A DNA stretch of 60,712 nt from Candidatus Nomurabacteria bacterium. Lineage in GTDB: Bacteria > Patescibacteriota > Minisyncoccia > Phycocordibacterales > SBAW01. This document shows, piece after piece, positions 4,159 through 60,712 of the stretch. The position numbers were made by a program, and so were the translations under genes. Every line of letters begins with the position of its first letter. Position 1 is the first letter of the stretch. The stretch lies in assembly GCA_943356415.1 (NCBI GenBank), contig CALREW010000001.1, positions 289,900 to 350,611 on the forward strand, given 5' to 3'. The notes beneath the pieces are model-generated. The model saw only the letters and a program-made list of their open reading frames with translations. It ran no database searches and had not been told where the DNA came from.

Positions 4159-4225
4159 TACCCTGCCCGGTTCATTCTTCACTACTACAAATACCACTCT
4201 GAGCATGAATTACTAGTGAAAATGG

Positions 4226-4280: not shown

Positions 4281-4285
4281 ATACT

Positions 4286-4912: not shown

Positions 4913-4924
4913 GTCTTGCCTCCT

Positions 4925-5749: not shown

Positions 5750-5841
5750 CGCGCGGTTTCCCTTCTTGGAGTTGTGTGCCGCGGCGCGGCACTGGTGTGG
5801 AATGGTTGAACGTTAGAGTTGAAGTCAAAGAGTCCTTCAAA

Positions 5842-5871
5842 ATTATACACTATAAAAATACTCTTTGTCAA
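5842..5871 (-). promoter_or_regulatory. Consensus sigma70 promoter for the two-lipoprotein operon
   Basis: TTGACA (5871-5866), 18 bp, TATAAT (5847-5842), in an AT-rich patch. Confidence 0.8.
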
Positions 5872-5896
5872 GAGTAGCTAAAATCGTGACTCAGGT

Positions 5897-5930
5897 ACGA
5901 AAAACGGCCGCCCGGAGGCGGCCGTTTCGT
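5897..5930 (-). terminator. Intrinsic terminator
   Basis: ACGAAACGGCCGCC-tccg-GGCGGCCGTTTTTCGT on minus strand just after the 5953 stop. Confidence 0.8.
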
Positions 5931-5952
5931 CGAAGGTTTGCCGTGAGACCGA

Positions 5953-7011: not shown

Positions 7012-7154
7012 GGAAGTATCCTGTTTTCGACGAACGTCATATCTGCAGTTACGGGCGCAGAACTCCCCGTTTGCTCCTTCCAACTTAGGAGCGTTACTCA
7101 AAACTTGTTGGCCGGTCTCGCTTTCCTTTCGCGAAGACCTATCCGACCAGGAAA

Positions 7155-7796: not shown

Positions 7797-7831
7797 ATCG
7801 TAGGCACAACTGTGCCAAAGCGAACGGCCGC

Positions 7832-7918
7832 ACAGTACATGTAAATAACAGTATTGTCAAGTCTTACGTTTATCCAAATTTCTGGAGTACTTGACAAGTT
7901 TAATAGGTGTGATATTGT
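7832..7918. promoter_or_regulatory. Back-to-back divergent sigma70 promoters
   Basis: Minus: TTGACA(7860-7855)-17-TACTGT(7837-7832). Plus: TTGACA(7891-7896)-16-TATTGT(7913-7918) with TG extension, 6 nt before ATG 7925. Confidence 0.75.
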
Positions 7919-7924
7919 CTTGCC

Positions 7925-39060: not shown

Positions 39061-39069
39061 ACAAAATTT

Positions 39070-40284: not shown

Positions 40285-40290
40285 GTGCGT

Positions 40291-44101: not shown

Positions 44102-44168
44102 AAAAGGCAGACGGGATTTAGTATGCCAGAGGCACAACGCCCCGCCTACGTATCGTATACTAAGATAC

Positions 44169-44573
44169 ATGCCAGCCGCGCTTGCGCTACTTGTCACGAT
44201 TGGGTTTGCTGCAGGTGCAGGGGCAGCGCTCTACGCATCACCCCTTATCGAGGAAGGAAGCAGCTACTCAACGTGGGTCCTCGGGTCACGTTCAAATCTC
44301 CTGTCCCTAGGCGGAAGTGTGGAAGCAATCGGGGATAATTTTTTTGTACTGAAAGAAGAAGGTGGCGATATGCGCATCCATATGGCCTATGACGCGCAAA
44401 CGCTCTCCCTTGCCTTATCTGAAAAAGAGGAATCCGGCGTCATAACCGGCACGCGACTCTTGGTTGTCCCGCCGCAAGAATACTTACAAACAGGAGCGCT
44501 TGTGCGAATCGTACTGCGCTCGACACCAGAGACGAGCGCACCGTACGCGGCACTTATTACCCTAACACCCTGA
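44169..44573 (+). CDS. Small exported beta-rich protein (DUF5666/OB-like, tentative)
   Basis: Signal/TM; G.V..IGDNFF.L...T...G..V.I pattern; TATACT 7 nt upstream. Confidence 0.65.
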   Translation: MPAALALLVTIGFAAGAGAALYASPLIEEGSSYSTWVLGSRSNLLSLGGSVEAIGDNFFVLKEEGGDMRIHMAYDAQTLSLALSEKEESGVITGTRLLVVPPQEYLQTGALVRIVLRSTPETSAPYAALITLTP

Positions 44574-44574
44574 T

Positions 44575-45042
44575 ATGTTCTCTGTACCAAAAGAAACATA
44601 CATATACGTTGGTTGCATCGCTATCCTTGCCATACTCTTGGGTGCAAGCGTTGTTTGGAATATCTTTCAATTGCGCGCTGCTCAGCTGGCCTCACTGCAG
44701 CAAGACAAAGCAGTGATAGCGGCTCTCAATGAAAACTTGCGACGCCGCGGCACCGTTATTGGAAACGACCCGATTACAAAAAAAATACGCATTGCGTACG
44801 TGGCAGCCGGCACCACGGTTAAGAAACGCATGGAAATCACTCTTAGTCCTGCCGCGAACATCCAACGCACCAGTGCAATAAAAAATAGTGAAGGTGTTAT
44901 TGTCGGCGTGAAAGCAGCGCGAATACTTCAGGAAAATGTACGTATCGGAGAGGATATCTATCTCATCACGAAGCCTACGACTGTCGGCGAATCATTTGAA
45001 ACATCGACCGTTTTTGTTGGAGATATTCTTCAGCGTCAGTAA
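44575..45042 (+). CDS. Small membrane-anchored protein (OB-like, tentative)
   Basis: N-terminal TM; RGTVIG...IGEDIYL pattern; 1 nt after the previous stop. Confidence 0.65.
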   Translation: MFSVPKETYIYVGCIAILAILLGASVVWNIFQLRAAQLASLQQDKAVIAALNENLRRRGTVIGNDPITKKIRIAYVAAGTTVKKRMEITLSPAANIQRTSAIKNSEGVIVGVKAARILQENVRIGEDIYLITKPTTVGESFETSTVFVGDILQRQ

Positions 45043-46793: not shown

Positions 46794-46982
46794 CTAATAG
46801 ATTCCTCCGCACCAGATCTGATATACCCTATTAAATTTTTCTGCGTGCACTTCTTCTCCACTCGTCATTACTCCAAGCTCTGGATCGGTACAGTTAAGAA
46901 GCTGTTCTTGTTTTGTGGGAAAAGAACCCAATCCAACAATCGAAAAAAGGAGAGCAACTGCCGTGAGTACTTTCTTTTGCAT
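46794..46982 (-). CDS. Small exported peptide, copy A (62 aa, ends RVYQIWCGGIY)
   Basis: Hydrophobic N-terminus, LGSF, L.CT.PE and C-terminal CGGIY are conserved with 59174..59371; TATACT 9 nt upstream. Confidence 0.8.
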   Translation of the reverse strand: MQKKVLTAVALLFSIVGLGSFPTKQEQLLNCTDPELGVMTSGEEVHAEKFNRVYQIWCGGIY

Positions 46983-47067
46983 GTGTATTTCTAGTATACA
47001 GAAAGTGCTCACTCCTATCTACTTACCGATTCTTTCCGCCAGGACAGAGCATCGGTATACTTCGCTC

Positions 47068-48669
47068 ATGGACAACGCATGGCCTTTCTGGCTTCGCACC
47101 GCTCTGATTCTTGCCGCAGCGGCGCTCTTCTTCTATCTACTCCACGGACACACGCCTCTGCAGCAACCTGGATTGGAAGGGTATATCGGCATACACGAGC
47201 ACAATCCGATGCTCGCATTCCCTGGAACTTCACTTCCTGACATGCAACTCGCCGTGGATGAACTCTCGATTAGCGCTAAAGCGGCGGTCTTGCCTTTTCG
47301 GGACGATCCGAGCGGGATTCTCCATACGGAGACCTACCCGGTCGCTTTCCTGATGGCGATACCAAATACCGAGAGAGCTCGGCGGACGATGCTTTCAACG
47401 CGTACAGAGCAGAGCGCAGAGACATACCACAAAACACTGCTCTCTCTCATCGAAGCTTACGAGGAGGCACTTTCGCAGGCGATCACCTTGCTTTCAACCG
47501 GGACGCCCACCGTGCTTTCTTCTTTTATGGGCACGAGTGATTCAGCACATATCGCGAAAATCTTGCGCGAGGGTCAAAACACGCTCACGCAAATGAAGAT
47601 GGAGGAGATGCGCAGGCACTCGTGCGCAACAGGAGGAGGTACGGCCTGCAGTGATCGACCATACTGGGACAATGTGCCGATGTACGCGACTAAATCTACG
47701 CTGACGCCTGCAACGCCATTACCAGACGACATTGTTTTGAAACGTGATGCCCTAAGAAAGTACGCATCGCACTCTGGCGTATCAATGGAGGACGTACACA
47801 CCTTCGAACTATCCGATTCCTCCTGTTATCCTTCCTACGCTCCAATCTACTACGACGTATCCACAAATCGATCGACTCTCTCCTCCGCTACCATGGCCCA
47901 TATCACCTTGTTGAGCGATGTTTTCTTCTACGATCTCGAGAAGATCCGTGGGGCATTCAGCCGCGCACTGTATCAAGCTGGTAGCCCGTATTCCTATCAG
48001 CCATTTAATGCATATATCTGCCAGGATTCAGGAGAAGAGTTCGGCGACTTGCTCGCCATGCGTTATGCCCGCAATGAGCTGGCGGCGCATCCTATAACAG
48101 CGGCAAGCAATGACACAAAGTTATTGGACGAGCTCCTCGCCGCACAAAAAGAATTCCTGGCTGAAAATCCGACACGCGAAGTGTCCTACCGACATCTTAT
48201 GTCAGAGGCGGAACGCCTCTTGCGTATCAAAGACGCCAAGCTCGTCGAGCTTCTCGGATCACAAGAGCGTGTTACGGCCTTACGAGAGCTTGCACTTAGT
48301 GCTCGAACACGCAGCGCAGGACTCGAGCTTGTTGTAGGTTATTTTGACGATATGCAGGCAGGCTCATATATGACCGCCCGCTTTGACGCGTATCGGACTA
48401 ACGTTTTTGCGCTGCTCCGATCAGGCATATCCCCACTCTTACTTGTAGCCAACGAGACCGGACCATTCAAAAAGAGTACGTCTCTCTTATCCAACGTTTC
48501 CAAAGAAGAGCTTGCACCAACTGATTATTCCCTGCTCTCATACAATCGCGATTTACGCGAACGCTATACACTCGAAAAATTGCTTTCGTTCCATCTCATC
48601 GCTCGCGAACAAGTCATAGAACCAATCGTCAAAGATCTTACCGCCCGTCGGGCGGCACTTTCTCACTGA
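47068..48669 (+). CDS. Large membrane-anchored hypothetical protein (paralogue X1)
   Basis: Start at MDNA (47068) after TATACT; shares AFPG, ELS.S.CYPS, FYDL and YSYQPFNAY.C.D.GE with 49932..51668. Confidence 0.8.
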   Translation: MDNAWPFWLRTALILAAAALFFYLLHGHTPLQQPGLEGYIGIHEHNPMLAFPGTSLPDMQLAVDELSISAKAAVLPFRDDPSGILHTETYPVAFLMAIPNTERARRTMLSTRTEQSAETYHKTLLSLIEAYEEALSQAITLLSTGTPTVLSSFMGTSDSAHIAKILREGQNTLTQMKMEEMRRHSCATGGGTACSDRPYWDNVPMYATKSTLTPATPLPDDIVLKRDALRKYASHSGVSMEDVHTFELSDSSCYPSYAPIYYDVSTNRSTLSSATMAHITLLSDVFFYDLEKIRGAFSRALYQAGSPYSYQPFNAYICQDSGEEFGDLLAMRYARNELAAHPITAASNDTKLLDELLAAQKEFLAENPTREVSYRHLMSEAERLLRIKDAKLVELLGSQERVTALRELALSARTRSAGLELVVGYFDDMQAGSYMTARFDAYRTNVFALLRSGISPLLLVANETGPFKKSTSLLSNVSKEELAPTDYSLLSYNRDLRERYTLEKLLSFHLIAREQVIEPIVKDLTARRAALSH

Positions 48670-49874
48670 CTATTTGGAGATCGCACCGAAGCACATTTTA
48701 GAGCGTACGGTGGCGGAAGCTTGGCACACAATTCAAGGCGTAGATGTTCTTCCTGCATAAAGGAGTATGGAATCATAATTGAAAGCGCCTGATAGCACTG
48801 GTCACCAACGCCCGCTGTTGCGGCACGTCCGCAGTAGGTAAACGATTGATCATAGTCGTGTCCGGCCATGAACGCATAGGAACCGGCAGATGCGTAGCAC
48901 CAGCCTCGTTTCTCCTGCGGGTAGGTAGCGCAATAGGCATCCGCAGCGTCCATATTGAAATAGGTGTCGCGAGCAAAGAGACGAAGTTGGGTGCCTCGAC
49001 ACAAATCTCGGCGCGAAACATCAAGCACGCCACAATCAAGCGGATGCGGCGGGCCCTTGCTTAATTCTTTGTAGAACAAGGATGCGCTTCGCGCGACACA
49101 CGCGGCCTCTACTGCTCCAGAAAATGTTTTGCAAAATGCTCCAACCGTTTCCTTTGTCTGTCCATTGTTTCCAATAAGCGCATAATCTTCCGGTTCATGC
49201 GGTTCAAAAAGTTGCATAAATATTCCGTCGTAACAGGAAAGTTCTTGACCATCCCGCGTAACCCCACCAGCGTCTTTAAAGCGAACTGCTGCACATAGAC
49301 CGATCGACCGCTCAAGCGCTCCGTCGGTGATGAACATGAATAAATGACCCAGTCCGTGGGAACACATAAATAAAACGGCAGGAGAAGACGGCGCCTGCGG
49401 GTCAAAATCACAAAATCCTTGTACCTCCTCTAAGAACGCGGGAACCTTCTCAAGTGCTAAAAAGTCGGTCTTGAAGCGTTCTTGAAATGCTCCATGCAAT
49501 CCTCCGCTTAAGCACACCCCTTGCGGCGTGCGCCGGGCAACCTCTTTCCACTTAGACGGATCCTTTGCAACTTCGGTTGCCCCTAAACGATGTCCAATGT
49601 TGTGACAATATTCGCCGCTGGTATCAAGGCGCTGTATCTCTTCAGCTATCGCAAAAGTGTCTTCAAATGAGACTCCGCGGTCAAGCAACTTTGGAACTTC
49701 ATTCTCGTAACAGAGCGACCGGTTTTGCGCCTGTGCACATTGATCAACCACCGCATGCGCATACCTCTCTAAGGACACCGGAGCGGCACTGTAGACACGC
49801 AACGCCACCATGACTAGTGCCACAATCAAAAAACCTCCCAAAAATGACATCGTTCGTCGTGGATTCACCTTCAT
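48663..49874 (-). CDS. Cys/His-motif exported protein (paralogue 6)
   Basis: Start at MKVN (49874) after TATACT; YCHNIGHRLG, CLSGGLHG, CSHGLGH, CYDGIFM. Confidence 0.8.
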   Translation of the reverse strand: MKVNPRRTMSFLGGFLIVALVMVALRVYSAAPVSLERYAHAVVDQCAQAQNRSLCYENEVPKLLDRGVSFEDTFAIAEEIQRLDTSGEYCHNIGHRLGATEVAKDPSKWKEVARRTPQGVCLSGGLHGAFQERFKTDFLALEKVPAFLEEVQGFCDFDPQAPSSPAVLFMCSHGLGHLFMFITDGALERSIGLCAAVRFKDAGGVTRDGQELSCYDGIFMQLFEPHEPEDYALIGNNGQTKETVGAFCKTFSGAVEAACVARSASLFYKELSKGPPHPLDCGVLDVSRRDLCRGTQLRLFARDTYFNMDAADAYCATYPQEKRGWCYASAGSYAFMAGHDYDQSFTYCGRAATAGVGDQCYQALSIMIPYSFMQEEHLRLELCAKLPPPYALKCASVRSPNSQ

Positions 49875-49931
49875 GTCGACAGTATATCCCTCAGACACAG
49901 CAGCGGGCTCTTTAGTATACTCAGGGACGAA

Positions 49932-51668
49932 ATGAAGGCGACGTACGCCATGCTGGGGTTTCTTGCGATTGTCAGCTTTGCCGTTGCAACGTACGGAATA
50001 GTGAGCCAAGCGCGTTTTTTTCCTTCTGCAATCACATCCAATCCAAAGGATCGTCTTGCTCAGTATGTCGAAGCACATCGACTTGACCCAATATTTGCAT
50101 TCCCGGGCATTGATGTCGAAGCAATGCGACAAGTGGTAAAAGAATTCACGATAAGTGCCCGCGTCGCCATGCCGCCGTACAATAATCAGGAGGCGATACG
50201 GGAATCGCTTTTCCCTTTTCAATTTCTTGCAGCCGTAGCAGACGCAGAGGAAGCCCGCGTCAAGCTTTTTGCGGAGCCTAGTCGTGAACATGCTGATGTC
50301 TATCACCGCTCACTTATGCATCTCATGGAAAACTACAAGGAGGATAGCTCCCACGCGCGCGATATCTTAGAACACGCAAGCACGACAACTCGCATATTCT
50401 TTTTCATCGGAGAGACGAGCCCCGCGCGCATCAAAACCGTACTCGCCGAGGCGGAGGTGCACGCGAATGCCCTTATGGAAAAAGAGGAGCGGCGTTTTGA
50501 TTGTCTTTTGGGTTTAGCCGCACAATGCGAGTCAATCGATTCTCTTATCCTTCAATTTGGCGATATGAGCACCGGGACACGTTTGGATACTTTGCCGACT
50601 GAGAAACTCACTAAAGTCGCCGAGGAAAATTTCAGCACCCTTGCCGCACTCAACTCACAACTTGCGTCAAGCACCCTCGTCGAACTCTCTCATTCTGCCT
50701 GCTATCCGAGCGCGCCTACCTACTACGCAGTAACAACAAAGATATCGAGGCTCTCCGGTCTTCCCTCTGCTGATATCACGTACCTCAACGATCTGTACTT
50801 CTACGATCTCAAGCGTACAAGCAAGCAACCGTACTTTGACGAGCTACAAAAGGCAGGGGCGCAGTACTCATACCAACCATTTAACGCGTATCTTTGTCTT
50901 GATGCTGGGGAAGATATGGGACGTTTAATGACCATTATCCATACGCGCATATCTCTCGCTCACACTCCTTTGAAGGCCCGAGGCGGTTACATTCCACCGT
51001 TGATTAAAGAGGTACTAGAAGCGCAAGAACAATTCCTCGCAGGGACTACCGTGCGCTCAGATGCCTACGATAGGTTGATACGCAACGCATCCCTTGCCGT
51101 ACGAACGTATGGAATGACCGGTGTGTCTTCATATTTTTCTGATGCCACCGCAGGGGAACAACTCGTCGACTTGGTTATACTCTCGAGAACTCAAAGTGCT
51201 GATTTCGAGAAAATAGTCGCCTATTTTGACGACCTGCAAGTAGGAACATTCCTCCCCTATCATTTCAATCCCTCTCCTCTGTATGCGTTCCTCATGACGC
51301 GCGGTGGCCTCTCTCCGCTGCTTGCACTTGAAAACCGAACCGGCGCTCTACCCCAGGCGCTCTCACTTTTGGAGACCAATGTGCCACACAAGAACCCGTA
51401 TGCCTATATGCACATAAGCCTACGCTCTTATGAAAACGACCTTCACGCGACACGTGCGCGTGGCACGCTGATACAGACCCTCCTTGACGAACGTCGCGCG
51501 CACGACAAAGCATTCGGGTTGCTCATAAGCGATCTACAAATTGCACGACAATCGTATAAAAAAATGCTTGAAACATGCGGCGGGTCCGTGGCACTACATA
51601 CTGAAGAATCACCTATCCGACGAATCTGGAATATGACATGCACTCCAGCTCCCACACCTGGCTCTTAG
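49932..51668 (+). CDS. Large membrane-anchored hypothetical protein (paralogue X2)
   Basis: Co-linear homology with 47068..48669; N-terminal TM. Confidence 0.8.
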   Translation: MKATYAMLGFLAIVSFAVATYGIVSQARFFPSAITSNPKDRLAQYVEAHRLDPIFAFPGIDVEAMRQVVKEFTISARVAMPPYNNQEAIRESLFPFQFLAAVADAEEARVKLFAEPSREHADVYHRSLMHLMENYKEDSSHARDILEHASTTTRIFFFIGETSPARIKTVLAEAEVHANALMEKEERRFDCLLGLAAQCESIDSLILQFGDMSTGTRLDTLPTEKLTKVAEENFSTLAALNSQLASSTLVELSHSACYPSAPTYYAVTTKISRLSGLPSADITYLNDLYFYDLKRTSKQPYFDELQKAGAQYSYQPFNAYLCLDAGEDMGRLMTIIHTRISLAHTPLKARGGYIPPLIKEVLEAQEQFLAGTTVRSDAYDRLIRNASLAVRTYGMTGVSSYFSDATAGEQLVDLVILSRTQSADFEKIVAYFDDLQVGTFLPYHFNPSPLYAFLMTRGGLSPLLALENRTGALPQALSLLETNVPHKNPYAYMHISLRSYENDLHATRARGTLIQTLLDERRAHDKAFGLLISDLQIARQSYKKMLETCGGSVALHTEESPIRRIWNMTCTPAPTPGS

Positions 51669-52876
51669 TTCAGAATCTCTTTTGTGCCCGCACAATACTG
51701 GTATTCTTCCGAATCTGACTTTGTAAACATAAGACACTTCTCTGCGCGTTTGCCTGGGTACCACCGCGCTAAATCTTCTCCAGAAAGAGCGAGACATACT
51801 GCTTTATCTTTCTCCGGAGCGGCATTGCAAAGGTCGGCATATCCCTGCACGTCTCCTCCCGTTGCAAATCCTTTGAATATGGTCGCTTGCTCAAAGCACG
51901 ACTCGCGGTCTTCAGCTCTCTCAATGCCGGAGCACACCGATGCAACGTACGTCATATCATCTGAGAGCAGCACCGCCTGCGCTCCAAATGTTCCATAACA
52001 ATCTGTCCTGAACGCAGGCGGTATACGGTTGCAAAAGAGACTCGTCTTCGCATAGTCAGCTCGCGATTGCTGCAGCACGAATGTGGAGCGCGACGCGTAG
52101 CATTGATGCTGGTACTTTGCCGCAAGTTCCGTACACGGATATTCAGGGTTGTCTTTGTCGACCGTTGAGTTTCCCTTACCTCCGTTAAATGAAAACGTGT
52201 CCTCCATAAAAACCCCCGTATAGCAAATACCCTGGTCGTGCGTATCGGCAATGTAATCGCAAAAAGGGAGCGCCTTAGCAATGTCATTATTGGTTTGAAG
52301 CATGGCGGCGTGACCAAGCCCATGGATGCACGCATCGTACGTGACACGATTCCCCGCTTCCTCTTCCTTGCACGCATTTTGAATCACCTCCTTAGTCACC
52401 GCTCCCCCATGCGCTTGAAGATATCCTTCGAGCGTCCCGTGGAAGCACCCCTCACCGCAGGCAATGTCGGTCGAGCACGCAAGGAAACTCTGAGAGATAC
52501 TGCCTGTCTTTTTAAACTCACGCTGTCCGAGTACATGCCCAAACGCATGACACCAACCGCGTATTTGCGGTTCATCTTGTATCTCAGCGAGGCCTTTAAG
52601 TGCAGCGGGCAATTCAAAATGGGCAGTCACCCGATTTCCTAATTCCTGATAACAATCACTGCGCCATACATTGTCACGGTATTCCTCGGTGCCGTAACAC
52701 GTAAGAAATTCAGTACGCAGATATGACGCAACACTTTCAAATGGAAACGGGTTCCGTAAACCATATTTGCCAAACAGTTGGCTGTAGAGAAAAAATGGAC
52801 CAAGGATACAAAGAAAAATTCCCGCGAGAATAAGATTCCTTTTCTGTGTTCGCACAAACAAACGCAGCGTGTGCAT
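51665..52876 (-). CDS. Cys/His-motif exported protein (paralogue 7)
   Basis: TM; WCHAFGHVLG, CGEGCFHG, CIHGLGH, CYTGVFM. Confidence 0.8.
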   Translation of the reverse strand: MHTLRLFVRTQKRNLILAGIFLCILGPFFLYSQLFGKYGLRNPFPFESVASYLRTEFLTCYGTEEYRDNVWRSDCYQELGNRVTAHFELPAALKGLAEIQDEPQIRGWCHAFGHVLGQREFKKTGSISQSFLACSTDIACGEGCFHGTLEGYLQAHGGAVTKEVIQNACKEEEAGNRVTYDACIHGLGHAAMLQTNNDIAKALPFCDYIADTHDQGICYTGVFMEDTFSFNGGKGNSTVDKDNPEYPCTELAAKYQHQCYASRSTFVLQQSRADYAKTSLFCNRIPPAFRTDCYGTFGAQAVLLSDDMTYVASVCSGIERAEDRESCFEQATIFKGFATGGDVQGYADLCNAAPEKDKAVCLALSGEDLARWYPGKRAEKCLMFTKSDSEEYQYCAGTKEILN

Positions 52877-52885: not shown

Positions 52886-53641
52886 CTATCTACCGAACAA
52901 ACCATTGATAAGACTGACAAACGGCAGTCCGAAAGAACCGGTGCCCACATCTGCGACGGGCGCGTAGAGGTACGACCCCCTATCAACAAGCGCGTCCTTG
53001 CCTTTAGCAACCTCAACAACAATTGGATGTGCCAAAATGTAAGGGTCATGGCGTGTGCCAGTTACTTGCCACGAAACCGTGCCGCCTGCTACTCCACCTG
53101 CAACGCGGAAGCGATTATCTTTCACGCCATCGCGAATATAGAGATTCGGCATGGGCTGACCTATCGGTTTTAATTGATAGCGAAAATCTTTATTGAGCGC
53201 TTCAAAGTATGCCGGCAGCTGCACTACTGCTTCACCAGCGTTATCGAGCTTCGCCACACCATCGTACATATTTTTTACATCAGGACTCTCCACGAACGAG
53301 TGATACAGCAGTTTGTTTGCAGGGTCGAGTGGATGGTCGATGACGAACGTTCCGCTACCTTTAGAAATATTTCCAGTGACGTTAAAGTTGAGCGCCGCGG
53401 TCGCATTTTGTGTAAACGTAAGTTGATACGACGGCTGATAATAGCTCTGGTAATACCCCTGGTAGTAGCCTTGGTAGTACCCCTGGTAATACCCCTGGTA
53501 ATAGCCTTCGTAATACCCTTGGCCATAACAAGTGCCACCTCCTCCACCGGCAAATGCCGCCACCGGAAGCAAGAGCCCGCCTGAAAGCATCGCAGCCAAA
53601 AGGCGTAGCACGTGTCGCTTAGTGTTTTTCATAGCCTTCAT
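52886..53641 (-). CDS. Exported FVIDHPLDP-domain protein with N-terminal Gly5 and (YYQG)n tract
   Basis: Signal peptide ending AFA|GGGGG; seven YYx[G/S/P] units; FVIDHPLDPANKLLYHSFVESPDVKN.YDG; start may be 53632. Confidence 0.8.
   Translation of the reverse strand: MKAMKNTKRHVLRLLAAMLSGGLLLPVAAFAGGGGGTCYGQGYYEGYYQGYYQGYYQGYYQGYYQSYYQPSYQLTFTQNATAALNFNVTGNISKGSGTFVIDHPLDPANKLLYHSFVESPDVKNMYDGVAKLDNAGEAVVQLPAYFEALNKDFRYQLKPIGQPMPNLYIRDGVKDNRFRVAGGVAGGTVSWQVTGTRHDPYILAHPIVVEVAKGKDALVDRGSYLYAPVADVGTGSFGLPFVSLINGLFGR
53252..53353. repeat. 102-bp exact direct repeat, copy 1 (copy 2 at 53934..54035; 51-bp core also at 54549..54599)
   Basis: Base-by-base identity checked by eye; encodes GTFVIDHPLDPANKLLYHSFVESPDVKNMYDGVA. 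Confidence 0.9.
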
Positions 53642-54179
53642 AGAGGTACGCTCCTTTTTTCACGAGTGCATCTTCACCTTTATCGACTTCCACACGAGTA
53701 TCAATTTGCAGAATAGCAGGGTCGTGACGATTGCCCGTTATCTGCCACGATACACGGTTTCCTGGTGTACCGCCGGCAATAACAAAACGATTTTTCGTAA
53801 CATCTGCACCTTCCTTCAGATACAAGTTCGGATCTGCGCTATCGAGCGGAAAAAATTGATACCTGAAATCTTTGTTAAGTGCATCGAAGTATGGTGGCAG
53901 CGAAATAATTACTTCGCCTTTCGCATCAACAAGCGCCACACCATCGTACATATTTTTTACATCAGGACTCTCCACGAACGAGTGATACAGCAGTTTGTTT
54001 GCAGGGTCGAGTGGATGGTCGATGACGAACGTTCCTGTGGTTTTCGTCAACGTCCCAGATATGGAAAGGCTCCCACTAAAGCGTGTTCCTACGGTGATGG
54101 TGACCGCAGTCACGGCCACCGGCGTAATAAGAAGCGCGAAAGTGGCAAGCCCGGTGATAATCTGTTGTTTATTTACCAT
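53619..54179 (-). CDS. Exported FVIDHPLDP-domain protein (paralogue 2)
   Basis: Signal peptide; same domain (SWQITG.RHD). Confidence 0.82.
   Translation of the reverse strand: MVNKQQIITGLATFALLITPVAVTAVTITVGTRFSGSLSISGTLTKTTGTFVIDHPLDPANKLLYHSFVESPDVKNMYDGVALVDAKGEVIISLPPYFDALNKDFRYQFFPLDSADPNLYLKEGADVTKNRFVIAGGTPGNRVSWQITGNRHDPAILQIDTRVEVDKGEDALVKKGAYLYEGYEKH
53934..54035. repeat. 102-bp exact direct repeat, copy 2
   Basis: Identical to 53252..53353. Confidence 0.9.
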
Positions 54180-54744
54180 AGGCTTCAGGCGTCAGATATT
54201 CTCCCTTCTTTACCGGCGTTGAATCGTCCTTGGTCACTTCAGTCACGATAGGGTTATCCATAATGAACTTGTCATGGCGGATTCCCGTTATCTGCCAGGA
54301 GACCGAACCCCCTGCCACTCCACCGGTAATTGTAAATCGTATGGGTCCAAACAACCCGAACCAGCGACGATGCACTTCTTTTTTAAGATGGAGATTCGGC
54401 ATGGGCTGCCCGATAGGCGTCGCGAGGTAACGGAAATCTTTGTTAAGTGCTAAAAAATATGATGGGAGCGGTATCTCTGCCTCGCCGTTTTCATCAAGCT
54501 CAATAATCCCATCGTAAATATTTTTAACGTCAGGGCTTTCTACAAAAAAGTGATACAGCAGTTTGTTTGCAGGGTCGAGTGGATGGTCGATGACGAACGA
54601 TCCGGCAACCTTTGAGAGAGCCCCGACGACGTTGGTGCCCTGTATAGCGACCGTTGAGTTAAAGGTAACCGCGTCTACCACCGTTGCCGACACCCCCCAC
54701 AAGAGGAGTGCCCCGAACGCCGCCACAAACCCTCGCTTCAACAT
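54169..54744 (-). CDS. Exported FVIDHPLDP-domain protein (paralogue 3)
   Basis: Signal peptide; same domain; TG-extended TATCCT 6 nt upstream. Confidence 0.82.
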   Translation of the reverse strand: MLKRGFVAAFGALLLWGVSATVVDAVTFNSTVAIQGTNVVGALSKVAGSFVIDHPLDPANKLLYHFFVESPDVKNIYDGIIELDENGEAEIPLPSYFLALNKDFRYLATPIGQPMPNLHLKKEVHRRWFGLFGPIRFTITGGVAGGSVSWQITGIRHDKFIMDNPIVTEVTKDDSTPVKKGEYLTPEAYGK

Positions 54745-54766: not shown

Positions 54767-56245
54767 TTATTTCCTTTCTAGACCGACTCGTAAATCCTTT
54801 GCTTCAGCATACGCGGGCCTCAATTGAAGCGCCTCGTCAAGCATCTTCTTCGCTTCGGGACGCTTCCGAGCCAAGATGTACAGCTGGGCTGCAAAAAAAC
54901 GAGCTGACGGATCACTTGGAGATCGTGCAATCGCTTGATTGAACGCTTCGACACCCGACTGGAGAAGTTCCTTGTCTGGCTTCATGGCGTATCTCTCTGC
55001 AATGGTAATACCTAGCATTTTCCAGTTCTGCGCGTTGTATGGGTCGCGAGCGGCAATATCTTTTGCAACAAGAAAGGCGTCATGGAAGAGCGGTGAGACC
55101 GCATCGACCGTAGCGTTATGTTGGGACAGCTCGCGCGCTTCAGCGCGGAGAATCTGAGCGTACAATCGCCCCGCTCGGGAGTTGGCATCCATTCCGTACG
55201 AGAGCTGCATTCTGACCCGAGCGTTTGGAAGATCGCCAGTTGCCGCCGTTGAAAATGCACTGACGTACAGAATCGTCGCAAAAAGAAAGTACACAGTGCC
55301 CGCTGCACCTATGTAGAAGAAGATAGTTGCGCCTCGCGCTACGTATGGATGTGGTACGAGGGTGTGAGAAGAAATTCGTTTGCATGTGCCGAGTACGACA
55401 AAAGAAAGGAGAACGACGGCTACTGAAGGTTCTGCAAATGCGAGGGATGCTACCGACACCAGAAGGAGTACGGGCCCCAGCAAAGCCGAGAGGCGATGCA
55501 TGTGTGTAGACGTGCGCCAACGAGTAATACCATCCACGGTCGTCTCAGCAAACACGGCGAAGAATGCAACGACCAGTAGAAAGGTGCCAAGCAACCCTAT
55601 TTCAATAACGAGCGTCGGTAGTATGCCGGAGCCGGTGGTAAAATCTTCACTCCAGAAAGGCGTGAGATTCACGCTCTGCGGCCGATACTGCTGCCACGCG
55701 CGCACAAACGCGCCCGGACTCTCACCGACCAACAACGCGCGTGTGCCGTGTTCAAAAAAGAAACTCGACGCAATAGACGTCGTCATCGACAACGAAGGAC
55801 GGACGTGTGGAATCGTTCGTAAATATGGAACGGAAACGATACCGATAAGGAGCGTGCCCGCTACAACAAGAAGTGCGCGTCGTGGGATATCCGGGAGCGC
55901 ACTACACACCCAGGAGAGCGCCGCGCATAGTAGGAGCATGAACGCTGAAGTCATATCAAAAGCGAGACTTGAAAATACTTCCGCAATACTGCCGGAACAT
56001 GCCGCGGAGACAACAACAATCACACAAAACAGAAAGAGGCTCGCCTGTGCAAACGACGTCTTTCTCACGTCAGGCACGTATCCACGACGTATTGACCAGA
56101 TAAAAAGAGAAATACCGCACAAAAAAAGAGCTGCCGCGGCAACGCTCTCAGCTGCCGGACCCTCCACAAAAAGAGAAACGGCCACGTAGACGGCGGCCGG
56201 AACAAGACATATACCAAGTGCAGCGTATGGAACAACCTTGCTCAT
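54767..56245 (-). CDS. Multi-TM protein with C-terminal TPR-like repeats (O-antigen-ligase-like, tentative)
   Basis: About 10 TM helices; G.SPG.F...W..Y.P..VN.T.FW and E.G.LG motifs; TPR-like tail; start at MSKV (56245). Confidence 0.7.
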   Translation of the reverse strand: MSKVVPYAALGICLVPAAVYVAVSLFVEGPAAESVAAAALFLCGISLFIWSIRRGYVPDVRKTSFAQASLFLFCVIVVVSAACSGSIAEVFSSLAFDMTSAFMLLLCAALSWVCSALPDIPRRALLVVAGTLLIGIVSVPYLRTIPHVRPSLSMTTSIASSFFFEHGTRALLVGESPGAFVRAWQQYRPQSVNLTPFWSEDFTTGSGILPTLVIEIGLLGTFLLVVAFFAVFAETTVDGITRWRTSTHMHRLSALLGPVLLLVSVASLAFAEPSVAVVLLSFVVLGTCKRISSHTLVPHPYVARGATIFFYIGAAGTVYFLFATILYVSAFSTAATGDLPNARVRMQLSYGMDANSRAGRLYAQILRAEARELSQHNATVDAVSPLFHDAFLVAKDIAARDPYNAQNWKMLGITIAERYAMKPDKELLQSGVEAFNQAIARSPSDPSARFFAAQLYILARKRPEAKKMLDEALQLRPAYAEAKDLRVGLERK

Positions 56246-56287
56246 TGCCTTCACAGTATACGGTACTGAAAAACTCTCGGAGGCCGT

Positions 56288-57397
56288 TTAGTGTTGAACG
56301 TTGATAGCTTCGCAACGCTTGGTGAGTTCCTTTTGCAGCGTCTTACAAAAATCCTTTTTTTGAGCCGCCTTCCCCGCAAATCCTCGCTTTACCGCAGTAG
56401 CTACATTGAGGAGGCATTGTTCTTCAAACGGTCCCGCCGTCGCGCATCGTTTATGCATTGTATCGAAATCGGTTCCACTATCGGTGATAGAAATAGATGC
56501 GACTTGTTCTCGACACGAGAAGGCATTCTCTGCTACATCGAGTTTGGCGCACGCTGCAAAGGCGCCGGCAAAATCCCCTCGGTGAGTGTTGAGGTAAGAG
56601 CGTCCAACAAAAAGTGAACATTCGGTCTTAAAAACCGTAAGTCCATTGCACAGCGAGAGCATGCTGTCCCCTTCCTGCTGTTTCGGCAATTTCAGTGAAT
56701 TGATGTAATCAACGCTATAGAGATAGCTCTTCTCCATGAGTGCTCCGTACGCACATCGACCACGCATCCATTCGTATGGCAGCCGCGAACAGATAGGAAG
56801 CACATCACTTACCTTGTTCTCATAGGCATACATAAGGCCGTGACCTACCGCATGGAAACACTGCATATTTGCCGTCCAGGAAAAATCTTCCGTCATCGGG
56901 TTCGTCGGCACCCAGTGGTCGGCACAACTTTCATGAATGAGTTGGTCAATCGGCGTACGACTTCTCTCTACTTTGAAATATTCCATCAGGAGCCCGTGCT
57001 GAAAACCTTCGTAGGTAAGGTAGTTGGCATACGTTGGCGCTTCAGGCGGCAACGTGTCCATCGCCGCTTTGCGAGAACCAAGCTGGTCATAGGCTTGCAT
57101 GCCGACCATGTGCATCGCGAGATGCGCGGTGTTGCGGTTGTATGGAGCTACTACTTCAGCGGTATAGCGAATTGCGCCAATAACATCACCGCTCATCGCG
57201 ATATAGTGCGCTTTATCACGCATACACACGCGAACATTCTCCTCTGAAAAACACGAGTCTTTGGGACTCAGGTAGAACACGACGTCCGCGCGATACACGT
57301 ACAGCACGATGGCACCAAGTACACCAAACGCGACGAGTGCAGCGCGTACATCACGCTTTGCCAACATAGAGAGGAGCCATTGCTTGGCGTGTTTCAT
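56288..57397 (-). CDS. Cys/His-motif exported protein (paralogue 8)
   Basis: TM; AHLAMHMVG, EGFQHG, CFHAVGHG, CAYGALM. Confidence 0.78.
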   Translation of the reverse strand: MKHAKQWLLSMLAKRDVRAALVAFGVLGAIVLYVYRADVVFYLSPKDSCFSEENVRVCMRDKAHYIAMSGDVIGAIRYTAEVVAPYNRNTAHLAMHMVGMQAYDQLGSRKAAMDTLPPEAPTYANYLTYEGFQHGLLMEYFKVERSRTPIDQLIHESCADHWVPTNPMTEDFSWTANMQCFHAVGHGLMYAYENKVSDVLPICSRLPYEWMRGRCAYGALMEKSYLYSVDYINSLKLPKQQEGDSMLSLCNGLTVFKTECSLFVGRSYLNTHRGDFAGAFAACAKLDVAENAFSCREQVASISITDSGTDFDTMHKRCATAGPFEEQCLLNVATAVKRGFAGKAAQKKDFCKTLQKELTKRCEAINVQH

Positions 57398-57406: not shown

Positions 57407-58699
57407 CTATAGCAAACGTTTCTTTTTGCTCCATCCAATCCACGCTTCAACCGGGCGACACTCAATCACAATGGGACGCACCGACCCTTCTGCGACAATA
57501 TCAGCGTACGAAAGCGCCGGGGCTATTTTGATCCCCTCACTGAGGGTTTTTGCAATCGCTTCATCAAGTTCCCCATCTCCTTCATCCATATAGAGCGTGA
57601 TTGAAAGCCCTGGCACTTCTCCCGCGGCGTCCCAAGAGGCAGCAAACTCTTTTATCTCAATAGAAAGGCCCGCAACCGCCTGATCAACTGCAGCGATGGT
57701 AAGCACCCCGCGCGGCACACGTATGCGATCGAGCGTGAGTCTGCCCATACATTCAAACAAGAGCGGGCTACCCTCGCACGAACATGTCTCGGAGCGAATG
57801 CGGGCAAAATCGCCGGTACGATAACGAATAAGTGGAAATGCCTGGGGCTCATGTGTGGTGATGACGAGCTCTCCTTCCGTACCGGCCGTAAGCGGCAGAC
57901 TCTCCCCTGTCTCTGGACTAATAAGCTCAATGAATAAGGAGCCTTCAGCAACATGGAACGCTTTCGGGTCACTGCTCATTTTCTCTGGGCACGTATAGCC
58001 GACAAAGCCTTGCGATTCAGTGAGTCCGTACTGAGATGCAATCTTAGCGTTCGGAAAAAACTCTTGTAATTTCGTAAACTGCAATGTGGTAGCTAACTCC
58101 CCCACAGCGACCACAAGACGCACCGCTCTGCATCCATCCAGTGCTTTCAAAAAAGGAGCAAAAGAGACGAGACCGCTAGGACTTCCCACTACGGCATCAA
58201 CTTGTGCTTCTGCGGCAAGTCGTGCGGTAAGCTTCGGTTGCGTAAAATCACCAGATATAAACATTCGCCCCTCCATGCCTCGCACACGCACTTCATGTAC
58301 AAATGACCCTGCAGAGAAAAGCAACTGCGACTTAATGTTCATTGACGAGAAGTATGGCTCGAAATAGCGAGACAATTGCCCCGACACGGGCACGTGGCCA
58401 ATGCTTTTCAAATATTCTTGGTACAGTCCCTCCTCAAGCATCGGAAAGCCAATGACATTTTTCCCCGTTGAACCGGATGTCGAGCGTATAAAGCGCACCA
58501 TAGTTTGTGGCACAAATACGCGTGAGCGTAACGGCACTGCTTCAATCTCAGGCCTTGTGAGAAACGGTACCGCAGCGACAGACTGTGAGAGAAGCGCTTC
58601 GAACTCTGCGCCGTACTTGCGGCGATAGAAATCGGAGTGGGGATTATGGAGCGCAAACGTAAGCGCCCGATGCATGAGCGTCTCTATCTTTTCTTTCAT
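57407..58699 (-). CDS. PaaK/coenzyme F390 synthetase-like adenylate-forming (ANL) enzyme, copy B
   Basis: DFYRRKYG, TSGSTG, YGLTE, GELVIT, LIRYRTGD; co-linear with 45048..46328. Confidence 0.88.
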   Translation of the reverse strand: MKEKIETLMHRALTFALHNPHSDFYRRKYGAEFEALLSQSVAAVPFLTRPEIEAVPLRSRVFVPQTMVRFIRSTSGSTGKNVIGFPMLEEGLYQEYLKSIGHVPVSGQLSRYFEPYFSSMNIKSQLLFSAGSFVHEVRVRGMEGRMFISGDFTQPKLTARLAAEAQVDAVVGSPSGLVSFAPFLKALDGCRAVRLVVAVGELATTLQFTKLQEFFPNAKIASQYGLTESQGFVGYTCPEKMSSDPKAFHVAEGSLFIELISPETGESLPLTAGTEGELVITTHEPQAFPLIRYRTGDFARIRSETCSCEGSPLLFECMGRLTLDRIRVPRGVLTIAAVDQAVAGLSIEIKEFAASWDAAGEVPGLSITLYMDEGDGELDEAIAKTLSEGIKIAPALSYADIVAEGSVRPIVIECRPVEAWIGWSKKKRLL

Positions 58700-59148
58700 G
58701 GCAATAGGTCGTGCACAACGATGGCGCCGGGGACGTCAAAAGAACTTTGCTCTTCCTTTGTAGAGAGAACGACCCAAAGTCGTATACGCTCAAGCATGCG
58801 AACCTCAGTTAAATCTGCCAGGAGATTGCGGGCGCCCACATCGTTCGTAATCACCGCATCTATTTCAACGTTGCGCATGAGACCCGTGAGTGCTGAGACA
58901 TTGGTCGGCATGGCCACCGCAGTGATGACGCCGCGTTTATTTGCTTCCTGGTACGCAGCAAAGTGTTGCTGCCATGCAAACGGCAACACAATGCCGAGAC
59001 CTTGTATGTTTGCTTCTTCAAGCGCCTTCCCAAGTACTGGCCACGTGAGGCTCACTTCCGCTGTCTGCGCAACAGGAACAGCAAACGTTTCCCCGTAGGC
59101 GCGCGGAACGATGCGCCATAGTTTTGGGTCATGCTCCGGCACGCGCAT
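58696..59148 (-). CDS. 150-aa hypothetical protein, copy B
   Basis: ATG 59148 gives exactly the length of copy A and avoids overlap with the peptide gene; shared motifs. Confidence 0.78.
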   Translation of the reverse strand: MRVPEHDPKLWRIVPRAYGETFAVPVAQTAEVSLTWPVLGKALEEANIQGLGIVLPFAWQQHFAAYQEANKRGVITAVAMPTNVSALTGLMRNVEIDAVITNDVGARNLLADLTEVRMLERIRLWVVLSTKEEQSSFDVPGAIVVHDLLP

Positions 59149-59173
59149 AGCAAACTGCTTCAAAATAATCGGT

Positions 59174-59371
59174 CTAGAAAAGCCCCCCGCATCCGACGTA
59201 ATACACCCGTTCATCTGAGTCCTTTTGAGCCTGCGTATCGCCATTCTGTTCAGGAGACGTACACTGGAGCGCCGAAACATCTCCAGACGCGTGCCAAAGG
59301 CCAAACGAGCCAAGAACCGCAACGGCCGCAAGTGACATAAGTGAGAAAGCTCCTTTTAAAAACCGCTTCAT
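59174..59371 (-). CDS. Small exported peptide, copy B (65 aa, ends RVYYVGCGGLF)
   Basis: TG-C-TATACT 7 nt before ATG 59371; LGSF, L.CT.PE and CGGLF motifs. Confidence 0.8.
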   Translation of the reverse strand: MKRFLKGAFSLMSLAAVAVLGSFGLWHASGDVSALQCTSPEQNGDTQAQKDSDERVYYVGCGGLF

Positions 59372-59416: not shown

Positions 59417-60712
59417 TTAGAACGAGGCGCTATTGAACGGCTGCTCTTTCTTCACTGAGGAGACTGGTACCCCCTGCCCATCTTCAGTGGTCTTCAACTC
59501 ATGGCCAAGATACTCGGTGTCGTCTTGGTCAGGACGTAGGTTAGGCCATTTGGCGGCATCATAGCGGTTAGCGATGAAGCGTGCCGAGACTTCGCCTGCC
59601 TTAGTTGCCGACACGATAACTGCAGCCTCGTTCGGCATTTTCTTGTAGAAGACACGGCCGTCAAATGATGCGGTGAGATTGATGACGAGATTCTTCCAAT
59701 CTGCACCGAAGTCGGTCACTTGGTAGAAGAGCCATAGGTCGCTTCCCTCCTCCAAATCGTTGAAAGAGAGTTTCTTTTCGTAGTAACCCGTCTTCGCGTT
59801 GTACTGCTCAAGTTCAAGCGCAGCAACGGCCTCTTCTTTAATGCCGATGGTCGAATGACCGTATGTCGCATATTTCACTCCGTCGATGGTGTAAACCGGG
59901 TCGATGGTTGAGACGTCAAGTTTACCGACAATCTTTATGTCGCCCTGGAAGGTTGACGTTGCGGTTCCAAGACCTGTTGCGCCACCTGCACCAACGAAGA
60001 GGCGGTCAGAGATGGAAAGTTGTTGCGTTGGAGTCGACGTACCGATGCCGACCTTACCGTTGTTGTCGACGATAAATACTTTTTGGTTCGAGGTCGTCGC
60101 AATCTGGAAGAGGTTATCGGTCGTGTTAGTAGAATTGATGGTGAGGAGGTATTGCGGTGTTGTGGTACCGATGCCAATCTTATTCTCAACAATAATGTTG
60201 CCGTTGCCAGTTGGCGTGCCCGACGGGCAGGAACCACCGGTGCAGATCCAGAGGTTGGTATCGTTAGAGAAAATATCAGAGCCTTGCGGGGTGATGGTAA
60301 GATCTCCGACTGAACTCGTGAGGAAGTCCGTGTAGCGCGTCGTGTCATATGCGATGGTGACTTGCGCGGTTGAAACAGCATCTTGTACCGATATTTTGCG
60401 CGCAGGAGTGGTACTACCGATACCGACGTTTCCACCATTGTCGATGACGAAGCGAGTGAGTGTTGATGAGCCCACCACAAACGCTGGGCCCGTTATACCG
60501 TTTGGATTAACTGACAAGAGTCCCCATGGGGTGGACGTTCCAACGCCAAGGCTTCCCGTGGTATTAAGCGCTGCAGCAGTGATAGTACCGGTGAAGGTAG
60601 GAGACGCAGAGAGCACCATGTTCCCTGTTCCGGTCACGGCATTAGAGAGGGTTACACCACCGTATGTGAGTGCGCCTGAGAGTGTGGTGGCGCCAGTGAC
60701 GGAGAGGGTTGA
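59417..60712 (-). CDS. C-terminal part of a large fibre/adhesin-like surface protein (5'-partial)
   Basis: Frame open to window edge; repeated G(N/K)VGIG(T/S)(T/S)TP units; C-terminal IDPVYTIDG.KYATY domain. Confidence 0.8.
   Translation of the reverse strand, partial: STLSVTGATTLSGALTYGGVTLSNAVTGTGNMVLSASPTFTGTITAAALNTTGSLGVGTSTPWGLLSVNPNGITGPAFVVGSSTLTRFVIDNGGNVGIGSTTPARKISVQDAVSTAQVTIAYDTTRYTDFLTSSVGDLTITPQGSDIFSNDTNLWICTGGSCPSGTPTGNGNIIVENKIGIGTTTPQYLLTINSTNTTDNLFQIATTSNQKVFIVDNNGKVGIGTSTPTQQLSISDRLFVGAGGATGLGTATSTFQGDIKIVGKLDVSTIDPVYTIDGVKYATYGHSTIGIKEEAVAALELEQYNAKTGYYEKKLSFNDLEEGSDLWLFYQVTDFGADWKNLVINLTASFDGRVFYKKMPNEAAVIVSATKAGEVSARFIANRYDAAKWPNLRPDQDDTEYLGHELKTTEDGQGVPVSSVKKEQPFNSASF

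Follow-up and report, generated by a model that had tools for sequence, protein, structure and literature searches.

What does an adenylating enzyme do beside the gene of a small peptide that ends in C-G-G-L-F? The question is raised by a cassette on the minus strand of a 60,712-nucleotide stretch of DNA from a Candidatus Nomurabacteria bacterium (Patescibacteriota; assembly GCA_943356415.1, contig CALREW010000001.1, positions 289,900 to 350,611), which we call the window. This cassette, copy B, encodes a 65-residue peptide, a 150-residue partner and a ligase of the phenylacetate-coenzyme A (CoA) ligase, or PaaK, type of the ANL family; a diverged copy A lies in the same window. The module looks like an uncharacterised peptide-modification system, a Patescibacteria cassette for a modified small peptide. 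As to its chemistry, we tentatively favour, while giving it clearly less than an even chance, a reaction on the peptide itself: its C-terminal carboxylate would be adenylated by the ligase and then captured as a thiolactone by the cysteine at position -5. The features of operon B and its downstream border are:

59387-59379, minus strand: extended -10 box TGcTATACT, 7 nucleotides (nt) 5' of the peptide B ATG; candidate promoter of a leaderless transcript.
59371-59174, minus strand: peptide B, 65 residues, MKRFLKGAFSLMSLAAVAVLGSFGLWHASGDVSALQCTSPEQNGDTQAQKDSDERVYYVGCGGLF-stop; K/R-rich N-terminus, hydrophobic signal or anchor, Cys37, acidic linker, tail ERVYYVGCGGLF-stop.
59148-58696, minus strand: partner B, 150 residues; ATG 25 nt past the peptide B stop; putative ligase N-domain paralogue without ANL motifs.
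58699-57407, minus strand: ligase B, 430 residues, PaaK-type ANL; coupled to partner B by the ATGA overlap 58699-58696.
57397-56288, minus strand: Cys/His-rich protein, 369 residues; ATG 9 nt past the ligase B stop, no TATACT box between; final gene of operon B.
56260-56255, minus strand: next TATACT box, 9 nt before ATG 56245 of the gene for a 492-residue TPR membrane protein (TPR domains by Pfam/NCBIfam scan).

Since the next TATACT box on the same strand, at 56260, stands before the TPR gene, operon B comprises the peptide, partner, ligase and Cys/His genes. A mechanical call of 211 residues (58696-59331) overlaps the open reading frame (ORF) of peptide B in a different frame, and the ORF itself can be extended in frame to an 80-residue call beginning at 59416. 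We favour the 65-residue start because relatives have a stop one to three codons 5' of the equivalent Met and because the TATACT box is conserved: the box, or a TACACT- or TATAAT-like variant, precedes the peptide ATG by 6-10 nt in most related loci, a few of them having weaker variants. An earlier note on this DNA had read the same layout from its letters, with the peptide under a longer overlapping ORF call, a leaderless promoter of its own with a TG-extended TATACT 7 nt before the ATG, and the partner, ligase and Cys/His gene trailing at short gaps or overlaps. All of this is borne out, the junctions being 25 nt, ATGA and 9 nt.

The window has 16 TATACT sites, and at 11 of them the ATG of a long ORF follows after 6-10 nt. 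This marks TATACT as the general -10 box of the organism, not as something peculiar to the peptide gene; many of its mRNAs are probably leaderless. A generic scan for sigma-70 promoters and terminators returned 3 promoter-like sites against 4.1 expected, the organism's signal being the lone TATACT box. Searches for runs with the locus led only to DNA from lake, freshwater, sediment and groundwater samples; none of the runs that hold it is RNA, so that transcription and leaderless starts rest on comparative evidence. All sequences used are metagenome assemblies. Further examples of the box stand at 29715(+), 44156(+), 47056(+), 49916(+), 56260(-), 49886(-), 33591(-) and 26687(-), and box positions correct the mechanical starts of three ORFs: 48663-50306 (to MKVNPRR), 46915-48669 (to MDNAWPF) and 54767-56254 (to MSKVVPY).

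Is the peptide a real gene, and does it belong to the ligase? In every type-1 locus (the architecture of the window) having upstream DNA, a homologous small ORF lies directly 5' of partner and ligase, with tails that include DERVYFVGCGGLF, EDRIYFVGCGGLF, DERIYYIGCGGLY, DERVYHVGCGGLF, DERIYYVGCGGMF and QERVYQVWCGGIF. A six-frame reading of 1.48 Mb gave 93,115 stop codons, of which 18 close the pattern C[GSA]G[LIMVF][FYW]-stop; 16 of these 18 adjoin a ligase of the family on the same strand, far beyond chance. With hidden Markov models (HMMs) of the peptide, partner, ligase and Lnt, the peptide was detected beside the ligase in 22 of the 26 sources of the family, usually directly upstream and on the same strand, and in none of 148 other sources, nearly all ordinary PaaK-like loci. 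This is the co-inheritance typical of peptides made on the ribosome and modified after translation (RiPPs), a short precursor gene adjoining a modifying enzyme. Five sources with a family ligase are without a peptide match: four are cut-off contigs, and only L088 is a full locus without a peptide; L082, which has the ligase only, is counted among the 148. The association persists at 25-30% ligase identity, in records from Adler-, Kaiser-, Nomura- and Saccharibacteria. The earlier note had made the conservation of a C-terminal Cys-5/aromatic pattern a check on its proposal, and a pattern of Cys-5 with hydrophobic or aromatic residues held across homologous loci over this same range.

Further peptides were gathered by profile search of a protein collection and by partner-based look-ups, giving 28 distinct sequences. 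Their last Cys stands at -5 in 20, at -6 in seven and at -13 in one weak outlier (L174). A hydrophobic N-terminal 17-mer follows 1-4 Lys/Arg in 27, and in 26 the last Cys has a second one upstream of it, at a spacing of 12-30. The tail Cys, flanked by Gly, Ser or Asn, is the sole invariant residue of the family. Across ligases 41-87% identical the tail stays nearly constant, C-G-G-[LIM]-[FY], while the variable part is the hydrophilic linker. Within the last 12 codons of ten type-1 genes, 12 third, 7 first and 3 second positions vary, and the Cys-Gly-Gly codons differ by synonymous changes alone; this pattern indicates purifying selection on the protein. By these measures the peptide is a genuine conserved gene; peptide B has no Pfam match. 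The peptide's strongest constraint sits at the extreme C-terminus, and the free C-terminus looks important.

Tail class also follows ligase subfamily: CGG[LM][FY] in type 1B, WCGGI[YF] in type 1A, C[NS]SI[LI] in Lnt-linked loci and CG[GN]F[IL][QED] with short second ligases. Clusters with several ligases have several peptides (L004, L081, L175). From the distribution of charges, the tail is predicted to lie outside the cell in most type-1 peptides. The first Cys, with Q, N, M, T, R or V before it, comes 8-25 residues after the hydrophobic segment. In the peptides no lipobox [LVI][ASTVI][GAS]C directly follows the hydrophobic core, and the lipobox-like tail lies at the far C-terminus. Two roles were considered for the upstream Cys. 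That of an N-terminal Cys exposed by signal-peptidase cleavage, for a head-to-tail cyclisation resembling native chemical ligation, finds no support, since its -1/-3 residues misfit the A-x-A rules; that of a lipobox Cys was rejected on the same ground of unsuitable preceding residues.

The second question is what kind of enzyme the ligase is. Its family is rare, with about 20 proteins at E < 1e-20 among 5.8 billion, the few named ones coming from Kaiserbacteria and Adlerbacteria. Profile scans of genomes and metagenomes were dominated by ordinary PaaK genes (the seed P[LH][IV]RYRTGD is universal), which we reused as negative controls; the contigs of close relatives were fetched individually. 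Ligase B carries a P-loop TSGSTGK, YGLTE, YRTGD, GRLTLDRIR (GR..D) and a C-terminal Lys motif GWSKKKRLL, and residues Y224, E228, Y293-D297 and R320 are invariant in 19 relatives. Against the PDB, the family profile matches the phenylacetate-CoA ligases 9s3l (E 5e-37), 4r1l (E 4e-35) and 2y27 (E 2e-28), and also AjiA1, NatL2-type ligases (NatL2 is PDB 6siw) and 2-hydroxyisobutyryl-CoA synthetase. For Pfam AMP-binding the two ligases score 27.4 and 30.2 bits, which is borderline given the cut-off of 29.9.

On motifs and profile matches, then, the ligase is a PaaK-type ANL adenylating enzyme, and with its motifs present and conserved it should adenylate. It is presumably cytoplasmic, being without a signal peptide. 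It stays far below the cut-off of every curated family scanned: 46.1 bits against 646.3 for PaaK proper (TIGR02155 equivalog), and 102.4 bits against 300, over residues 141-309 only, for the best NCBIfam match, the DVU_1553 family (NF045666). No ThiF/E1-like adenylation domain was matched in the Pfam, NCBIfam and PDB-profile scans.

The partner has no Pfam or NCBIfam match. An exhaustive HMM search of 1.84 billion proteins gave 34 representatives, one of them a false positive, in a short form of 107-158 residues and a long form of 212-314. With hhalign, partner residues 71-130 align to ligase residues 142-201 (87% probability, E 3.7e-6). The partner also aligns, at 94-95% probability, with the N-terminal part of 257-306-residue proteins encoded just 5' of the ligase in L081 and L004, which end in a ligase-like ...PLLKYRLP...CPCGK and are without a P-loop. 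Its AlphaFold model (predicted local distance difference test score, pLDDT, 81) is a Rossmann-like alpha/beta domain; a Foldseek search of the model against the PDB gave no significant match (best E 3.9e-3), the weak neighbours including many ANL N-domains. Finally, the 590-residue protein P0168 is a natural fusion of partner and full ligase (L174:4001-5933, on a contig of 58% GC). Profile alignments, model and fusion together point to the partner as a truncated, motif-less and catalytically dead ligase paralogue. PaaK-type enzymes require dimerisation via their N-domains (PMC8388817), which makes a pseudo-subunit role of the partner a reasonable inference. No RiPP recognition element (RRE) or known peptide-recognition domain was matched in the Pfam/NCBIfam scans; the partner would take that place as an ANL-derived domain.

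How does copy B relate to the second cassette? Copy A has the same gene order:

46998-46993, minus strand: copy A's TATACT box; the ATG of peptide A follows after 10 nt.
46982-46794, minus strand: peptide A, 62 residues, ...NRVYQIWCGGIY-stop; orthologues in L168 and P0134.
46777-46325, minus strand: partner A, 150 residues, 31% identical to partner B.
46328-45048, minus strand: ligase A, 426 residues; overlaps partner A by ATGA; identity to ligase B 42%.

Over the whole cassette (46982 to 45048), identity to copy B is 42% for the ligases, 31% for the partners and 33% for the peptides. The two Cys are 24 apart in B and 27 in A, and the segments between them align only at their ends, T-x-P-E and RVY, just as had been claimed. 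The divergence of A and B, and the A-type orthologues elsewhere (L168, P0134), identify them as old paralogues, not alleles. Of the earlier proposal that two cognate pairs form two specificity groups, the two diverged peptide/partner/ligase cassettes stand; groups for signalling or antagonism find no support, given the nearly invariant tail, the old paralogy and the lack of agr, regulator or defence matches described below.

Outside the window there are sister architectures. Type 2 (L002, L005 and L084-L088) comes from Saccharibacteria and further Patescibacteria. Its ligase shows direct coupling to a membrane protein that resembles Lnt and has LNT_N and CN_hydrolase domains, and the peptides end in HF-x-G-C-[NS]-S-I-[LI](D):

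L002:7248-8924, L005:2798-4363, L084:5217-6821, L086:3739-5247 and L088:5144-6607: Lnt-like proteins coupled to distant ligase relatives.

Aligned to E. coli Lnt, whose catalytic triad we take to be E267-K335-C387, these proteins keep K335 and C387 and have Phe for E267 in all five: the domains are present, with the catalytic Glu replaced. No Lnt is encoded in the window. Type 3 (L004, L081, L175) has a long partner, at least two ligase paralogues and two peptides, one ending in CGG[IF][YF] and the other in CG[GN]F[IL][QED]; in L083 a peptide (CSGLF) is followed directly by the ligase.

Two of these loci offer further observations. L175/L176:1343-8795, on a 463-kb contig, encodes a long partner, at least three ligase paralogues, two proteins of about 437 residues of unknown family, and the peptides ...EVYFVGCGGFF and ...HLFVGCGNFLE; behind the anchor of the latter comes a strongly basic segment, from which a tail in the cytoplasm is predicted. 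In L174 a 46-residue ORF follows the 590-residue fusion and ends ...EEIYFATCGEFISDRPGKTS, with no hydrophobic anchor and 8 residues past the motif; it may be a follower-bearing variant.

What, then, would the ligase do to the peptide? We take as established which genes there are, in what order and how coupled, together with the promoter, conservation, co-occurrence, purifying selection, the ligase motifs, the ancestry of the partner and the fusion. From these we infer the chemistry: the peptide as substrate of the ligase, which carboxylate is activated, thiolactone formation and topology. In the favoured scheme, a leaderless mRNA would give the 65-residue peptide with a Sec-type N-terminal anchor, an acidic linker and a free C-terminal tail Y-x-V-G-C-G-G-L-F. 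The ligase would pair with its pseudo-subunit through the PaaK-type N-domain dimer interface and bind this tail. It would adenylate the C-terminal carboxylate, with the terminal Phe, Tyr or Leu side chain filling the phenylacetate pocket of PaaK, and the thiol of the Cys four residues upstream would displace AMP. The product would be a 5-residue thiolactone, the ring size of the autoinducing peptides (AIPs) of agr systems, with ATP replacing AgrB proteolysis. The N-terminal anchor would then bring the thioester-bearing tail to or across the membrane.

A thiolactone made via an activated free C-terminus is chemically reasonable, and thioester formation is the native chemistry of the ANL family. 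NatL2 makes an ester directly from the adenylate without CoA (PMC7204872), the ThiF-like GrcB forms a thiolactone in a ribosomal peptide at the expense of ATP (PMC12596934), and RiPP precursors bearing signal peptides exist (bioRxiv 10.1101/2025.10.31.685832). The scheme would account for ORFs that end 4-5 residues past the Cys, for the flanking Gly, Ser or Asn (which suit ring closure), for two terminal hydrophobic and often aromatic residues (which could fill an aryl-acid pocket), and for an ATP-using enzyme where no C-terminal extension can be cleaved.

Several points weigh against it. We know of no PaaK-type or other ANL enzyme that activates a peptide alpha-carboxylate; the norm of the family is a small acid and a thiol acceptor. 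The distance from Cys to end is not absolute: seven peptides have one extra polar residue (Q, E, D) past the motif, and the L174 ORF runs on for eight and has no anchor. With the tail predicted outside, the ATP-dependent step must precede export. The conserved upstream Cys is left unexplained; its part could be no more than a disulfide to the Cys of the tail. As for the pseudo-subunit, its link to ANL enzymes rests on profile matches of 87-95% probability and on non-significant Foldseek matches (E at least 4e-3).

The usual ANL logic of a small acid and a CoA or carrier thiol suggests another explanation, possible though on balance rather unlikely: a small free carboxylic acid, aryl or fatty, would be adenylated and loaded on the tail Cys, making the tethered peptide a surrogate of CoA or carrier, or an S-acylated lipopeptide, whose acyl group the sister Lnt-like enzyme would pass on. 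The nearest solved relatives use phenylacetate, 2-hydroxyisobutyrate and 3-hydroxyanthranilate (PMC8388817, PMC7204872). CoA-independent PaaK-type ligases (NatL2, AjiA1, BagE/FevW) share the fold family and let a nucleophile of the substrate capture the acyl-adenylate (PMC7204872, PMC8388817). Those enzymes, unlike ours, work on small aryl acids in antibiotic pathways of Actinobacteria or Clostridia, with neither a peptide gene nor a pseudo-subunit. An invariant Cys between Gly, Ser or Asn could enter a pantetheine-type tunnel, extensions of one or eight residues past the motif would be tolerated better than by ring closure, and five loci have a ligase in tight coupling with an Lnt-like acyltransferase. 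Acylation of the Cys leaves unexplained, however, why 27 of the 28 ORFs stop 4-5 residues past it with the last two residues always hydrophobic; the conserved core is without a gene for acid synthesis or import, and a tail predicted outside in most type-1 peptides is ill-suited to a recycling cytoplasmic carrier. The upstream Cys is as unaccounted for here as under the thiolactone. We think it unlikely that there is no covalent link at all, the peptide being an exported or anchored disulfide protein or a non-covalent tether of a ligase that acts on some unrelated small molecule. The 26 of 28 peptides with two Cys could form a disulfide, 27 have a hydrophobic N-terminal anchor, the surrounding 23 kb are rich in secreted Cys/His proteins, and the Pfam/NCBIfam scans hold no RRE or known peptide-recognition domain. 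Yet peptide and ligase stay paired one-to-one even where loci have diverged deeply, been rearranged or been duplicated, tail class changes together with ligase subfamily, and constraint is strongest at the extreme C-terminus rather than on a fold. Doubtful to a slightly greater degree is an exported thioester: cytoplasmic ATP would close the thiolactone or load an acyl thioester, and the bond would be exported and spent outside, where there is no ATP, on peptidyl or acyl transfer to an amine, catalysed in the sister lineages by Lnt-like Cys enzymes lacking the Glu for ordinary ester donors.

Very unlikely, in our estimate, are two AIP-like pheromones of quorum sensing or antagonism, in different specificity groups and each with its own ligase. 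AgrD has an N-terminal membrane-targeting segment, which the segment found here recalls, and two diverged cassettes do share one genome. Both systems start from a small ribosomal precursor with such a segment, and Cys plus four residues, the last two hydrophobic, gives the ring size and ending of AIP rings (AIP-II is GVNACSSLF, PMC5007282); the likeness of CGGLF to the AIP-II ring CSSLF at three of five positions, pointed out in the earlier note, is a resemblance, with no sequence homology detected. In agr, however, specificity sits in variable ring residues, the hypervariable alleles of one locus, whereas here the tail is almost invariant within and between types, and A and B are conserved paralogues with orthologues elsewhere. 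The precursor has no AgrD-type C-terminal recognition tail; the ORF stops right after C-G-G-L-F, at the would-be ring, so no tail could be cleaved for energy, and in place of AgrB the candidate is an ATP-dependent, presumably cytoplasmic ANL ligase. The mature region would be about 40 residues with a second conserved Cys, against 7-12 residues in AIPs. Among the proteins scanned between 37.5 and 60.7 kb, none matched AgrB, AgrD, an AgrC/AgrA-type sensor kinase or regulator, or an ABC exporter in Pfam/NCBIfam, and PADLOC returned no matches for anti-phage defence. We regard as most improbable of all that the tail, [FY]-[VIAS]-[GS]-C, is a lipobox from which Lgt, Lsp and Lnt-type enzymes yield a lipidated pentapeptide. 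A relaxed lipobox does fit the tail in most members, the Lnt-like gene of type-2 loci adjoins ligase and peptide, and RiPP-lipoprotein hybrids exist, the DAG-RiPPs (bioRxiv 10.1101/2025.10.31.685832), which resemble our peptides in the N-terminal signal on the precursor and in an apparently cytoplasmic modification before export. They differ in having ChrH-type enzymes and a canonical lipobox right after the signal peptide; here the enzyme is another one, the box lies 25-40 hydrophilic, often acidic residues from the hydrophobic segment, and type 1A has Trp at -1. A lipobox would also leave the cytoplasmic ATP-dependent ligase without a role, and the Lnt-like proteins are without the catalytic Glu267.

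Setting the favoured thiolactone aside, where does the module stand among known systems? Stand-alone adenylating enzymes are paired with carriers in systems such as DltA/DltC, in which the carrier is a four-helix bundle of about 80 residues with a phosphopantetheinyl-Ser. Our ligase is likewise a stand-alone enzyme encoded beside a small possible thioester carrier, but the thiol would be a Cys in the unstructured C-terminal tail of an anchored peptide. ThiF/E1-like RiPP enzymes (GrcB, MccB, PaaA, EnfB) offer the parallel of ATP-driven adenylation of a peptide carboxylate with intramolecular capture: GrcB makes a thiolactone (PMC12596934), and EnfB activates the C-terminus of its precursor (bioRxiv 10.1101/2024.05.13.593846). 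They differ in superfamily, which here is ANL/PaaK, in using an RRE where the module has a dead ligase paralogue, and in the Sec-type anchors of our precursors; GrcB moreover joins a Glu side chain to a C-terminal Cys, a polarity opposite to that proposed here. The literature searched holds no description of the module, of its tails or of a PaaK-type enzyme acting on a ribosomal peptide, and none relevant on 9s3l. In its layout the module is a RiPP-like cassette of precursor and enzyme; what is new is an enzyme type without precedent, a pseudo-enzyme partner and a Sec-type precursor.

The Cys/His gene that ends operon B belongs to another story. The earlier note took it in tow of the ligase, which holds for its position behind ligase B and not for the conserved module: it follows the ligase only in the window and the near-identical L169-171 and is absent from most related loci, and in other loci two small convergent genes and the TPR membrane protein come after the ligase. 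It is a lineage-specific passenger. It is one of eight paralogues in the window (within 37549-44197, 48663-49871, 51665-52876 and 56288-57397). When the eight are aligned, 18 columns are invariant, of which 5 are His, 3 Gly and 10 Cys, with motifs such as CH..GH.LG and C.HG.GHG. They belong to no Pfam family. The protein is modelled as an all-alpha solenoid behind a membrane anchor (pLDDT 79), for which Foldseek returned no significant PDB match (best E 4.6e-2). A weak cupredoxin-like N-domain, present in the paralogues at 37549-39060 and 40291-41793, hints at metal binding outside the cytoplasm.

Comparison with the strain contig L169, about 99% identical to the window at 60626-58230 and 57826-57430 and 75-90% identical downstream beyond 57430, delimits one further feature:

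57830-58230, minus strand: divergent patch in ligase B, about residues 156-290.

Inside the patch the nucleotides are 57-73% identical, as against 96-100% to either side of it; for the protein the figures are 66% inside and 97-98% in the flanks. The patch falls where the enzyme lines its acyl pocket and is either a mosaic due to recombination or an assembly chimera. Gene conversion from copy A was rejected as its source: the L169 patch is nearer to Adlerbacteria-type ligases (76%) than to copy A (40%).

The window and related loci have several further features. Two small anchored proteins (134 and 155 residues; 44169-45042, plus strand) are encoded convergently to ligase A. In L001, L161, L165 and L173 they are kept downstream of the ligase, whereas cassette B is without them, and the ancestral locus seems to have been split between copies A and B. 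Two paralogous proteins of about 530-580 residues with an N-terminal anchor and no family match are encoded at 46915-48669 and 49932-51668 (both plus strand), one of them divergent from peptide A; a 520-residue counterpart flanks the A-type cassette of L168. Directly upstream of peptide B, and running off the window, 59417-60712 (minus strand) encodes the C-terminal part of a giant surface protein that exceeds 1,766 residues in L001 (L001:25-5325), with many GNVGIGT-type repeats and synteny kept in most type-1 loci; an IS200-type Y1 transposase lies between its gene and the peptide gene at L164:3613-4272 and L172:3143-3847. Three tandem paralogous secreted proteins (52886-53641, 53619-54179 and 54169-54744, minus strand) have the block FVIDHPLDPANKLLYH.FVESPDVKN.YDG in common. 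A (GYYQ)n repeat occurs in one, and none has a Pfam match. At 4001-8000 of the window the GC content is 0.60-0.61, against about 0.50-0.52 elsewhere; this DNA may be foreign or otherwise distinct.

The Patescibacteria, or candidate phyla radiation, have small, mostly unannotated genomes, and very little of their peptide chemistry is known. Here a small, leaderless peptide whose Cys tail is invariant, a putative pseudo-ligase and a predicted active PaaK-type ligase form a recurrent and strongly constrained module. The inconsistent starts given to the peptides by gene callers (80, 65 or 54 residues) are thereby explained, and whether the C-terminus is activated or the Cys acylated, about 30 small genes called hypothetical and about 50 ligase and partner genes gain an annotation. 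Should the peptide's own C-terminus be activated, the ligase would be the first peptide macrocyclase of the ANL family and would open an AgrB-independent route to thiolactones of AIP size. Should the Cys be acylated, the peptide would be a surrogate for CoA or a carrier protein in organisms poor in cofactor biosynthesis. An exported thioester, finally, would give Patescibacteria a new route to extracytoplasmic ligation or surface attachment.

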